Shown: in pieces, positions 6,891 through 9,836 of the stretch
How positions within the stretch are numbered: the first letter of the stretch is position 1
How the letters are laid out: the number at the start of each line of letters is the position of its first letter
Source: a virus
Taxonomy: Duplodnaviria; Heunggongvirae; Uroviricota; Caudoviricetes
IMG/VR virus record: IMGVR_UViG_2563366976_000007
Strand: one strand, 5' to 3'
Length of the DNA stretch: 9,836 nucleotides
Notes under the pieces: generated by a model
Seen by the model: the letters and a program-made list of their open reading frames with translations, nothing else
The model's database searches: none
What the model was told of the DNA's origin: nothing
Translations under genes and position numbers: made by a program

Positions 6891-6966
6891 GCATATGAGG
6901 TTTTTGGATGCACTGGCGTTCGTGATCGGGATAATCATTTCATAATTTGCAACATAACTCAATATC

Positions 6967-7016
6967 ATTGCATAAAATGCAATTCTGATTATAATCAGGA
7001 CTGGATAAACATCCAG
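6967..7016 (+). promoter_or_regulatory. Candidate regulated promoter of the head operon: three adjacent perfect palindromes overlapping -35, -10 and +1
   Basis: ATTGCAT-AAA-ATGCAAT (6967-6983), CTGATTATAATCAG (6985-6998) and CTGGAT-AAAC-ATCCAG (7001-7016). Consensus -10 TATAAT (6990-6995) lies inside the middle palindrome; -35-like TTGCAT (6968-6973) with a 16-nt spacer. Confidence 0.5.
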
Positions 7017-7051
7017 TTATGATTTTTTTAGTCGAAGAGGAATTTCTTACT

Positions 7052-7258
7052 ATGGCTGAAGAGAAAAAAGGCGGTGTTTCGGTGTACATAAGCCCCGAAA
7101 TCGTGGAGGTGCTCAAGCAGCGCCACAAAAAAAACTATGAAGCTGGCGTTGCGGCTGGACTGGATCCGCTGATGACGCCGGAGCCGTCGATAGGTTCACT
7201 TGTACGCTCTTATTTACTTGCGGCGCTTGGGATGCATAAAAATTATGGGGGTGAATAA
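7052..7258 (+). CDS. Hypothetical small protein (68 aa), first gene of the head operon
   Basis: ATG 7052 preceded by GAAGAGGAA; alternative in-frame ATG at 7019 has no SD. Its stop overlaps the capsid ATG (TAATG at 7256-7260), so it is translationally coupled to the major capsid gene. Confidence 0.6.
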   Translation: MAEEKKGGVSVYISPEIVEVLKQRHKKNYEAGVAAGLDPLMTPEPSIGSLVRSYLLAALGMHKNYGGE

Positions 7259-8313
7259 TGGCAGGCAAAGCAACGGCACTTAACACTAACCAGCTTTTCA
7301 TGTACCTGAATCGCGGGGATATTGCGGATTTTAAATTCAGCCCTCTGTTTACCACGCTGTTTTTCCCGAACGTGGCGACATTCAGCACGCAAAACATCAT
7401 GCTGGATACCCTGGACATTGAAGAAGTCACCATGTCGGCGTTTTGTTCGCCTATGGTGGGTAGCCAGGTTCAGCGCGATAAAGGGTACGAAACCAGCACA
7501 ATCAAACCTGGCTACATGAAGCCAAAGCACGAAATCGATCCAACGAAAACCATCATGCGCATGGCTGGAGAAGATCCGGCACAGCTTAACGACCCTACCT
7601 ATCGCCGTATGCGCCTGATTACTGGCAACATGCGCCGCCAGATAAACGCCATTAAGGCACGCGTGGAATGGCTGGCGGTGAATGCGGTAACGACCGGAAA
7701 AAACATCATTGAGGGCGAAGGCATAGAACGCTATGAAATCGACTGGAAAATACCGGAAAACTGCATCATAGAGCAGGCCAAGGGTAAAAAATGGTCCGAG
7801 CAGGATAAAGACATGCACGACCCAATCTATGACATCGAGCTTTATGCTGATCAGGCTGGTTGCCCCGCAAACGTCATGATTATGGGCGCTGAGGTATGGC
7901 GAACGTTACGCAGCTTTAAAAAATTCCGTGAGCTGTACGATCTTTCCCGTGGTTCAGAGTCCGCCGCAGAGCTGGCCTGTAAAAACCTGGGCGAAGTGGT
8001 GAGCTTTAAAGGCTATCTGGGCGATATTGCCCTTATCGTCTATTCCGGCAAATACGCCGACAGCGACGGCACAGAAAAATATTTCCTTGAGCCTGATTTG
8101 CTTGTCCTGGGCAACACCAACAATAAAGGGCTGGTGGCCTATGGTGCGATTATGGATCAGGACGCAGTAAGAACGGGGGCAACGCAAAACATGTACTACC
8201 CGAAAAACTGGATTGAGGACGGAGATCCGGCGATTGAGTACGTGCAGACGCACAGCGCACCGCAGCCGGTTCCGGCAGATATTCGCAAATTTGTTACTGT
8301 CAAAATTGCTTAA
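7258..8313 (+). CDS. Major capsid protein, lambda gpE-like
   Basis: 351 aa. Multiple blocks match lambda gpE as recalled: FKFSPLF..LFF (lambda FKFDPLFLRLFF), PGYMKPKHEIDP (PGYVKPKHEVNP), DPTYRRMRLITGNMR (DPAYRRRRIIMQNMR), VSFKGYLGDIALIVYSGKY (VSYKGMYGDVAIVVYSGQY), LVLGNT..GL.AYG.I.D, YPKNW...GDPA.EY...HSAP. Length also matches (gpE 341 aa). Confidence 0.85.
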   Translation: MAGKATALNTNQLFMYLNRGDIADFKFSPLFTTLFFPNVATFSTQNIMLDTLDIEEVTMSAFCSPMVGSQVQRDKGYETSTIKPGYMKPKHEIDPTKTIMRMAGEDPAQLNDPTYRRMRLITGNMRRQINAIKARVEWLAVNAVTTGKNIIEGEGIERYEIDWKIPENCIIEQAKGKKWSEQDKDMHDPIYDIELYADQAGCPANVMIMGAEVWRTLRSFKKFRELYDLSRGSESAAELACKNLGEVVSFKGYLGDIALIVYSGKYADSDGTEKYFLEPDLLVLGNTNNKGLVAYGAIMDQDAVRTGATQNMYYPKNWIEDGDPAIEYVQTHSAPQPVPADIRKFVTVKIA

Positions 8314-8324
8314 CGGGGGATTCT

Positions 8325-8660
8325 ATGGACACTCCATACATTGAGTTATTTGCAGGCAGTCAGCAGGTCGCCACGACGCTGGTACATTTTGCCGCTGATG
8401 CTGGCGTTATCCAGGAATTTACCCCGCTGATGCTGGCGGACAATGGCGAGTTTAAGCCGTGGGATGGTCAGGAATCTGGCAAGGCTGTTTATCTGACTTC
8501 GTACCCCGTGGACACGTCAAAGCAGAAATCAGCACAGTGTTACAAGACGGGGATATTTAATATCGCCGCCGTAAACTGGCCTGAGAGCGCCGACACTGAC
8601 GCGAAAAAATGCGCCGCCTTTGCGGGTTCTGGCGTATCCGTTCAGCCGCTGGCGCGATAA
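8325..8660 (+). CDS. Head decoration protein, lambda gpD-like
   Basis: 111 aa (lambda gpD 110 aa). Motifs TPLMLAD (gpD TPLMLD), WDG, CYKTGIF (FYKSGTF) and WPESADTDAKKCAAFAGS (WPEAASDETKKRTAFAGT). GGGGGA SD 4 nt upstream. Confidence 0.75.
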   Translation: MDTPYIELFAGSQQVATTLVHFAADAGVIQEFTPLMLADNGEFKPWDGQESGKAVYLTSYPVDTSKQKSAQCYKTGIFNIAAVNWPESADTDAKKCAAFAGSGVSVQPLAR

Positions 8661-8672
8661 GCAGGGGAAACG

Positions 8673-9086
8673 ATGGCAACGAATGAAAGCATCATGGCGC
8701 TACCGCTGGCGAGTAAATTTAAAGCAGAAGCGCGGGCAATGGCTGACAGAGGTTTATCAACCTACGAGGCCGTATATCAACTCAACAAACTGGAAGAACA
8801 GGACAAGCCGCGCGCTGATGCGATTATGGCGCTTCATGAACATAACGACTATCAGCCGCTGTTACGTGCAATGGCAAACGTGCCATGTATTAGCGTCGAT
8901 AATGCTCGTGAAATCCTGAACATGACCATAGAGCAGGAGCGCCCAAAGGTTGCACCAGAGCTTACCGCAGCCTTTGAAAACTTTATGGACATGCACAGCC
9001 CGCAAGCCGTATCAGCTGGCATGGCGTACGATGGCAGAAACCAGGGCGATGACGGCGACATCGATCGCATACTGAAAACCATCTGA
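8673..9086 (+). CDS. Hypothetical protein (137 aa) between the decoration gene and cos
   Basis: AGGGGA SD 4 nt before ATG. Acidic, probably helical protein. Function unknown; by position it could be a packaging or head-completion factor. Followed by a terminator and the cos site. Confidence 0.65.
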   Translation: MATNESIMALPLASKFKAEARAMADRGLSTYEAVYQLNKLEEQDKPRADAIMALHEHNDYQPLLRAMANVPCISVDNAREILNMTIEQERPKVAPELTAAFENFMDMHSPQAVSAGMAYDGRNQGDDGDIDRILKTI

Positions 9087-9148: not shown

Positions 9149-9160
9149 GGGCGGCGACCT
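9149..9160. other. lambda-type cohesive end site (cosN), GGGCGGCGACCT
   Basis: GTTACGGGGCGGCGACCTCGCGGTTTTTCGCTATTTATGA matches, with one mismatch, the lambda cos junction and left-end sequence as I recall it (…GTTACG|GGGCGGCGACCTCGCGGGTTTTCGCTATTTATGA…); identity is lost after ~35 nt. Lies ~135 nt upstream of the Nu1-like gene, as in lambda. Confidence 0.8.
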
Positions 9161-9293: not shown

Positions 9294-9836
9294 ATGAAAT
9301 CGCACCTGATGAACAAAAAAAACATGGCTAAAAGCTGCCGTGTAAGTGCGACAGCGTTCGACAAGTGGGGAGTAACTCCCGTTGAGCGTAAAGGCCGTGA
9401 GGCGTTTTATGATGTTGCCAGCGTGATAGACAATAGGGTTAACAATGCAATTAGCCAGCTTACAAACGACAAAGGCGATATTGACGATGATGAACTATTA
9501 CGAGTCAGGATCAGATTACTGACAGCGCAGGCGGAGGCGCAGGAGCTTAAAAACGAGCGCGAACGAGGCGACGTTATTGATACAGGGTTTTGCCTGTACG
9601 CGCTTTCAAAGCTGGCGAGCCAGATTTCTTCAATCATGGACAGCATCCCGCTTACTATGCAAAGGAGCTTTCCACACATTACCCCAGCCATGCTGGATGG
9701 GCTTAAAAGGGAAGTGGTTAAAGCCTGTAATGCCAGTGCCAGAGTTGCCGACAACCTCCCACAGATACTGGCTGATTACTTGAAAGAAACAACCGGAAAC
9801 GTACCGGAAAAGTTGCAGCAGAATAAAGATAAGTAA
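9294..9836 (+). CDS. Terminase small subunit, lambda Nu1-like
   Basis: 180 aa (Nu1 181 aa). Strong block similarity to lambda Nu1 as recalled: LLTAQAEAQELKNERERGDVIDTGFCLYALSKLASQISSIMDSIPLTMQRSFP (Nu1 LTRAQADAQELKNARDSAEVVETAFCTFVLSRIAGEIASILDGLPLSVQRRFP) and C-terminal LKREVVKACN...LADYLKE (LKRDIIKAMN...LSEYIEQ). The N-terminal ~50 aa are more diverged. Start could be ATG 9294, 9309 or 9324; none has a clear SD. Stop TAA is at the window end. Confidence 0.85.
   Translation: MKSHLMNKKNMAKSCRVSATAFDKWGVTPVERKGREAFYDVASVIDNRVNNAISQLTNDKGDIDDDELLRVRIRLLTAQAEAQELKNERERGDVIDTGFCLYALSKLASQISSIMDSIPLTMQRSFPHITPAMLDGLKREVVKACNASARVADNLPQILADYLKETTGNVPEKLQQNKDK

Follow-up and report, generated by a model that had tools for sequence, protein, structure and literature searches.

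Three clustered inverted repeats at positions 6967-7016 of an E. coli phage satellite coincide with what we propose, at a probability of about 0.6, to be the sigma-70 promoter of the capsid and packaging operon of a phage-inducible chromosomal island (PICI), with host LexA as its main switch. The third of these repeats, taken with its flanks, is probably an E. coli-type LexA (SOS) box of ordinary mechanism, and the operon would thus probably be switched on by the SOS response. The LexA mechanism is textbook knowledge; its use in this PICI operon is a prediction made from the DNA sequence.

By its gene content alone, the window, i.e., the whole stretch of 9,836 nucleotides analysed here, is assigned to the EcCICFT073 type of PICI. 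Its left module has the order integrase, AlpA, D5-type primase, SSB, PerC and a 74-aa ORF (orf74), and its right module the order orf68, gpE-like capsid, gpD-like decoration, orf137, cosN and Nu1-like gene. EcCICFT073 carries the same gene set, with c1499 and c1500 as the capsid and decoration homologues (PMC6092414), and its Nu1-like protein is Rpp, the function of which has been described (PMC6739421). The right module and the terminators ahead of it are laid out as follows.

6820-6843, plus strand: intrinsic terminator 1, AGCCGGAGCAATCCGGCT followed by a T-run (terminator scan and inverted repeat I6), which closes the upstream replication/PerC/orf74 operon
6846-6894: terminator 2, consisting of an A-run, a perfect 14-bp stem (AAAAGCCCGATAAG/CTTATCGGGCTTTT) and a T-run (inverted repeat I1)
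7037-7042, plus strand: ribosome-binding site AGAGGA
7052-7054, plus strand: start codon ATG of orf68
7052-7258, plus strand: orf68, 68 aa, first gene of the operon (phrog_3255)
7258-8313, plus strand: lambda gpE-like major capsid protein (Pfam, PHROG, RefSeq)
8325-8660, plus strand: gpD-like decoration protein (Pfam, PHROG, RefSeq)
8673-9086, plus strand: scaffold-like orf137 (phrog_1999; Pfam/PHROG and RefSeq)
9149-9160, plus strand: exact lambda cosN GGGCGGCGACCT, between orf137 and the Nu1-like gene
9294-9836, plus strand: Nu1-like small-terminase homologue of the Rpp type (PF07471, phrog_57), the last gene visible in the window

The start of orf68 at 7052 is that of the RefSeq annotation of identical DNA. 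The ATG at 7019 was rejected as a gene start, with most relatives reading ATG ATT TTT TAA at this place, and the 79-aa ORF that opens there in the window is an artefact peculiar to its lineage, arising from a 7-T run where most relatives have 6 T. We read orf137 as a lambda Nu3-like scaffold without protease domain; it also matches the C-terminal part (positions 494-567) of the head-maturation-protease family phrog_53. The cosN copy fits cos packaging by a lambdoid helper. In the left module, the AlpA homologue (minus strand; the stretches 1650-1858 and 2200-2397 are noted jointly for this gene and a 65-aa ORF) matches PDB entry 8c3t (E = 5e-8), an 'AlpA family phage regulatory protein'. Downstream of alpA, amid broken Icd-like reading frames, lies the 65-aa minus-strand ORF (phrog_949, DUF3950), which has a faint similarity to HicB.

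The 500 bp around the repeats are present in 594 of 5,426 complete E. coli genomes (about one in nine), including O157:H7 and O55:H7 lineages. Outside E. coli, the architecture was encountered in a few Salmonella satellites only, which were reached via orf68 homologues of 53-55% identity. A scan of species-representative genomes returned no relatives of the capsid gene, and the promoter-plus-LexA-box pattern gave chance matches only in these genomes, located in unrelated metagenome-assembled genomes (MAGs). Comparisons of variants below refer to 36 distinct family variants, and counts of gene linkage to 42 promoter-bearing elements.

The repeat region contains a promoter-like sequence composed of TTGCAT (6968-6973), a 16-bp spacer and TATAAT (6990-6995), a predicted sigma-70 promoter from which transcription should start near 7000-7004. 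The -10 hexamer is invariant in all 36 variants. The -35 hexamer matches the consensus TTGACA at three of six positions, which is why the promoter was not called by a consensus scan. Both terminators are strong, lie 100-170 bp upstream of the repeat region and argue for an independent promoter. Terminator 2, which apparently acts in both directions given the A-run before and the T-run after its stem, is retained even where relatives lack PerC and orf74. Linkage to the promoter is invariable for the downstream operon genes (42 of 42 elements) and for these genes only. A preliminary description of this DNA had placed the promoter of the head operon here, and this assignment is supported; the two terminators insulate the promoter from upstream.

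The stretch 6967-7016 reads ATTGCATAAAATGCAAT-T-CTGATTATAATCAG-GA-CTGGATAAACATCCAG, in which the following elements can be distinguished.

6967-6983: IR1, ATTGCAT-AAA-ATGCAAT, a perfect 7-3-7 inverted repeat with an asymmetric 3-nt centre
6985-6998: IR2, CTGATTATAATCAG, a strict 14-bp palindrome with TATAAT at 6990-6995
7001-7016: IR3, CTGGAT-AAAC-ATCCAG (CTGGATAAACATCCAG), a perfect inverted repeat with an asymmetric 4-nt centre, the maximal arms of which are 7 bp long (7000-7017)
6999-7018: predicted LexA box GACTGGATAAACATCCAGTT, with IR3 as its core CTG-N10-CAG, spanning about -3 to +17 relative to the predicted start

These elements had been described before as three perfect palindromes abutting one another across the -35, -10 and +1 positions. 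All three are present at these coordinates, but IR2 alone is a strict palindrome, whereas IR1 and IR3 are spaced inverted repeats. Their placement holds for the predicted promoter, but they are set apart by gaps of 1 nt (T6984, between IR1 and IR2) and 2 nt (GA at 6999-7000, between IR2 and IR3). The perfection of the repeats is partly lineage-specific. The seventh pair of IR1 is kept in nine of the 36 variants, with no compensatory changes, and the outer pair of IR2 is A:T in 17, C:G in 12 and broken in seven of them. The family-wide core of IR1 is TTGC-N7-GCAA only, which is also kept in Salmonella, and the conserved core of IR2 is the 12-bp TGATTATAATCA. TATAAT does lie embedded in IR2, but this is partly trivial because ATTATAAT is self-complementary. 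The further claim that such a density of symmetric sites is unlikely by chance was borne out, and the clustering of the three repeats is beyond chance expectation. Of 500 dinucleotide shuffles of the whole window, one had three non-overlapping perfect inverted repeats (arms of at least 6, spacers of at most 5) inside 55 nt; when the local AT-rich stretch 6895-7051 (33% GC) was shuffled instead, not one of 10,000 shuffles did. The local shuffles contained on average 0.36 such repeats, with a probability of 0.004 for at least three.

IR3 has the form by which LexA operators are recognised, a dyad of 16 bp (CTG-N10-CAG) that is AT-rich in the middle. Scored against a heterology-index (HI) matrix derived from 18 E. 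coli LexA boxes (Table 4 of PMC3009722), GACTGGATAAACATCCAGTT has an HI of 6.26, as compared to 6.54 for ruvA (CGCTGGATATCTATCCAGCA), 6.62 for uvrB and 5.70 for cho, and is placed mid-range among the 18 known boxes, whose leave-one-out HI spans 0.58-12.8. Omission of ruvA and cho from the matrix gives an HI of 6.88. The predicted box is the best LexA site of the window, the next best being a marginal one at 188-207 (HI 11.6). None of 200 window shuffles contained a site scoring as well, and 5 Mb of random sequence of window or local composition yielded no site with an HI of 6.26 or less. IR3 has 12 of its 16 bases in common with the ruvA core; the arms CTGGAT/ATCCAG are identical and the differences are confined to the central 4 bp. 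The predicted box begins 4 nt after TATAAT and spans the predicted +1, a location from which LexA would block initiation. Repression may nevertheless be weak, as for ruvA, because both arms are of the form CTGG/CCAG and not of the stronger form CTGT/ACAG.

Comparison of relatives further points to recognition by LexA. The box variants in E. coli all have an HI of 5.2-9.2, and three Salmonella satellites retain CTGGATGAAAATCCAG (HI 6.69) despite diverged leader and upstream DNA. A recurrent C-to-A variant (ATCCAG to ATACAG) breaks both the dyad and a hairpin described below, nears the LexA consensus ACAG and has an improved HI of 5.5-5.95; it therefore fits selection for protein recognition better than selection for RNA pairing. 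It could be objected that the stretch is a plain constitutive or weak promoter, the symmetry of which is a by-product of AT-rich DNA, of the self-complementary ATTATAAT and of hitch-hiking in a young, recombining family. The local GC content of 33%, the inherently palindromic nature of ATTATAAT and the unmaintained outer pairs of IR1 and IR2 would agree with this explanation, and a mean column identity of 96% within the family means that conservation within E. coli carries little weight. However, shuffles that preserve the local composition never produced three repeats, a LexA-grade score was absent from the composition-matched random sequence, and the Salmonella relatives keep the core elements while the neighbouring bases diverge. 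We thus regard a plain promoter as highly unlikely.

Regulation by LexA could proceed as follows. RNA polymerase would bind at TTGCAT/TATAAT and start near 7000-7004, unless a LexA dimer on GACTGGATAAACATCCAGTT (6999-7018) covers the start site and stops initiation. Upon DNA damage, RecA-stimulated self-cleavage of LexA would free the promoter, and the same SOS signal would induce the lambdoid helper prophage, so that the capsid, decoration, scaffold-like and Rpp proteins of the satellite would be timed with the late proteins of the helper. IR2 would essentially represent the -10 hexamer within a conserved 12-bp palindrome, and IR1 would be a possible site of a second dimeric factor, jointly with its degenerate copy, which lies three turns of the helix further upstream. 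A lytically infecting helper would not trigger the SOS response, and another route of expression would then be needed. LexA control alone also leaves IR1, the conserved upstream block and an extended hairpin with an invariant T-run unaccounted for.

Further LexA-like sequences were noted in the course of these comparisons. The pattern CTG-N10-CAG occurs eight times in the whole window as compared to 1.9 times expected from dinucleotide shuffles (0 of 200 shuffles), which is probably an effect of CTG and CAG codon usage that is lost upon shuffling; of these eight sites, only 7001-7016 scores as a LexA box. IR2 was rejected as a LexA site, having the wrong spacing (CTG-N8-CAG) and an HI of 17.4. 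In element L001 (NZ_CP024155.1), the int-alpA intergenic region contains TAGTGTATAAAAAACCAGTA (3508-3527, minus strand), a near-consensus LexA box with GTG in place of the critical CTG. This element has a different left-hand module, and the window has no equivalent of its int-alpA site.

One element of the family counts against the LexA reading. In L010 (NZ_AP045172.1, about 2560-2830), the promoter, comprising the upstream block, an IR1-like sequence and TATAAT, is joined near +1 to sequence of a capsid-forming PICI (cf-PICI), namely its leader and a module encoding an HK97-type capsid protein, a protease and a portal protein. The LexA box is lost at the junction, and this natural recombinant, present in one of the 5,426 genomes, thus drives a different capsid module without the box.

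The repeats had initially been ascribed to one or more dimeric regulators, namely a PerC-like or ribbon-helix-helix (RHH) protein of the element or the late activator of the helper. This ascription stands insofar as at least one repeat resembles an operator for a dimeric repressor, but the regulators proposed were not supported and IR3 fits host LexA. The corresponding alternative, that the repeats are operators for dimeric regulators of the satellite or its helper (PerC, an RHH autoregulator, for instance orf68, or a late activator of the helper) and that the match to LexA is coincidental, draws on the clustering of the three dyads beyond chance and on a second sequence upstream of the promoter.

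6934-6953, plus strand: upstream block ATCATTTCATAATTTGCAAC (conserved), a degenerate IR1 copy that agrees at 13 of 17 positions and has its centre at about -57, 30 bp before that of IR1

The block was recognised as direct repeat D1 (84%) and as a match to the IR1 pattern with two mismatches, and it reads ATCATTTCATAATTTACAAC in Salmonella relatives, where its flanks have diverged. IR1, the left arm of which holds the -35-like TTGCAT, may be an operator for some dimer, and its sequence together with that of the upstream copy suggests a second dimeric factor at two sites on one helix face, i.e., an arrangement like that of two operators. The whole promoter block from -68 to about +28 is kept between E. 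coli and Salmonella satellites although its flanks have diverged, and the constant linkage to the downstream operon genes alone would suit an autoregulator encoded by them.

The individual candidates fare less well. The gene for PerC is found in just 26 of the 42 elements that carry the promoter, and is absent from the annotated elements L005, L006, L008 and L009, which have the same repeats. For orf68, neither an RHH nor another DNA-binding fold was obtained: it belongs to no Pfam family, its AlphaFold model (pLDDT 73) consists of two helices and no strand, although the strand could be missed when an obligate dimer is modelled as a monomer, and its best match in a structural search of the PDB had an E-value of 2.5. 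In addition, the same orf68 protein accession is paired with different IR1 and IR2 variants. As for a helper late activator, a blastn search with 6925-7060 returned no meaningful match among 50,697 phage records, and on direct reading 6895-6990 contains no TGT and hence no site for P2 Ogr or P4 Delta (TGT-N12-ACA near -55). Mimicry of a helper late promoter was considered for the icd-integrated lambdoid prophage of CFT073 (L244, chromosome 1395000-1444000), the Q protein of which is QuuD and which is described as the helper of EcCICFT073 (PMC10111431). It was rejected: the search of phage records gave no meaningful match, and the only sequence that the region after quuD has in common with IR1 is the 8-mer ATGCAATT. 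TTGC-N7-GCAA is not enriched elsewhere in the element, with eight occurrences in the window at up to one mismatch versus 8.1 expected, which is chance level. In IMG/VR, the exact IR1 pattern was found in the same satellites and in unrelated environmental contigs, the latter taken as chance matches. None of the host and phage factors considered for IR1 and IR2 (Fur, CRP, FNR, NsrR, MarA/SoxS, IHF, Fis, DnaA, lambda CII, lambda QBE) fitted in spacing, as judged informally by eye against consensus sequences. Given further that a LexA-grade site is expected by chance less than about once in 5 Mb, we consider it unlikely that satellite or helper regulators explain the repeats and the LexA match is fortuitous.

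The second feature that LexA control does not account for extends from the -10 hexamer across IR3 into the leader.

6993-7029, plus strand: extended inverted repeat AATCAGGACTGGAT-AAAC-ATCCAGTTATGATT (inverted repeat I4), stem 6993-7006 with 7011-7024

The left arm of this repeat begins inside the -10 hexamer. In the window, the stem has one mismatch and one G.T pair and runs into the 7-T run at 7023-7029. A terminator scan flags a site here with eight pairs, three of them G-C; the short stem ends 4-5 nt from the T-run, and the long stem abuts it. The extended hairpin could be a third terminator for upstream read-through, or part of an antitermination device. Taken as the principal function of the region, the 14-bp extended stem and T-run would form a terminator or attenuator that stops upstream transcripts, or that is overcome by an antiterminator of the Q or AlpA type that loads at IR1. 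Besides the scan, a number of observations speak for such a role. The RNA of the extended hairpin folds far more stably than shuffled sequences (z -4.1 to -4.7), many relatives have a perfect 14-bp stem, and the T-run after the stem is invariant. Compensatory stem variants have arisen independently (GG/CC in L011, T/A in L034, C/G in L141, G/C in L025), with T.G intermediates also present, and in Salmonella the outer helix AATCAT/ATGATT has survived an indel. Leaders of cf-PICIs likewise contain a terminator-like hairpin and T8 just ahead of the capsid ATG, and AlpA of P. aeruginosa, which is loaded at an element between -35 and -10, lets transcription pass a terminator further downstream (PMC7969949).

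However, since the left arm lies inside the -10 hexamer, transcripts from the promoter itself hold only the 7-bp upper stem, 4-5 nt from the U-run, and if the outer A-U pairs are formed only three to five U are left. The stem has a mismatch in 15 of the 36 variants, including this window, and as the variants are close relatives, the shuffle statistics overstate covariation. A terminator would moreover act where two strong ones already lie 100-170 bp upstream. In the PDB, the AlpA of the PICI had a match in entry 8c3t only and none among the chains of P. aeruginosa AlpA, and IR1, read directly, is unlike the AlpA binding element (ABE) GGGACG-N5-GGTA (motif from PMC7969949). A search of 6500-7400 against Rfam found no family. 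Termination or attenuation as the main function is therefore doubtful, and we consider it improbable. Also unlikely is a combination of both mechanisms, in which LexA occupies the start site and the 32-bp extended palindrome with its T-run acts as a terminator for all transcription entering from the replication module, save by RNA polymerase that carries a satellite- or helper-encoded antiterminator of the Q or AlpA type, loaded at IR1 or upstream. If such a double lock were true, expression of the late genes would depend on DNA damage as well as on a signal from the helper, and the AlpA of Gram-negative PICIs, or the Q protein of the helper, would be a processive antiterminator and not a classical activator.

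The late region usual in cf-PICIs is built quite differently. In one cf-PICI of O157:H7 (L172, 1100-1365), three direct repeats (T/G)TTGTTC are spaced 10 bp apart upstream of a weak promoter. The leader of about 190 nt ends in a terminator-like hairpin (GTCCTGG...CCAGGAC) and T8 immediately 5' of the capsid ATG. The sequence of this late region points to an activator or antiterminator, and not to LexA, as its regulator.

Work on PICIs of this type has so far centred on AlpA as the helper-dependent switch (PMC6092414), and in the literature searched we found no description of the activation route of the PICI capsid/Rpp operon. Nor did the literature searches turn up a Gram-negative PICI reported to be under LexA control, which is an absence of confirmation and not counter-evidence, or a paper containing the box sequences. 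If the LexA box is real, genes for interference and packaging would answer directly to DNA damage, including that by SOS-inducing antibiotics, and independently of AlpA. The operon would then be a second, convergent case of the logic known from S. aureus pathogenicity islands (SaPIs), i.e., a Gram-negative counterpart with an E. coli-type box. LexA control would also offer a handle for engineering PICI-based delivery vehicles.

Among known systems, lambda Q at pR' and P. aeruginosa AlpA at PalpB are processive antiterminators that are loaded between -35 and -10 (PMC7969949, PMC9371919). The promoter described here is similar in that it has the right half of IR1 in its -35/-10 spacer and is followed by a terminator-like hairpin and T-run. 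It differs in lacking similarity to the ABE and in having a hairpin that overlaps the -10 hexamer and cannot form fully in its own transcript. There is also a likeness in form to E. coli SOS boxes such as those of the ruvAB operator (CGCTGGATATCTATCCAGCA), cho and uvrB, with which the predicted site has in common the 16-bp CTG-N10-CAG, the AT-rich centre, the HI range and the overlap with the start region. In contrast to the ruvA, cho and uvrB boxes, this predicted site has a different central 4 bp and different flanks and resides on a mobile satellite instead of at a chromosomal repair gene.

Operon I of SaPIs in S. aureus is reported to be a LexA-regulated operon of capsid-remodelling genes and terS (Ubeda et al. 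2007, cited in PMC3152322 and PMC6092414). Like SaPI operon I, the operon described here is a packaging and capsid operon of a satellite with its own promoter and, as predicted, host LexA as repressor, such that SOS induction of the helper would also release the morphogenesis genes. Unlike SaPI operon I, it belongs to another phylum and encodes lambda E/D-like capsid proteins and Rpp, as opposed to the unrelated cpmA/B and terS. The likeness between the two would be convergent and not homologous. The LexA motif of Firmicutes, CGAAC-N4-GTTCG, differs from the E. coli type.

In SOS promoters of colicin genes, LexA boxes are located immediately downstream of the -10 hexamer, and two boxes overlap. 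The PICI promoter differs from these in having a single box and two other dyads upstream. As in colicin promoters, however, a consensus-like -10 hexamer is followed by a LexA operator, predicted in the present case, that lies over +1, on a mobile element the expression of which is costly.
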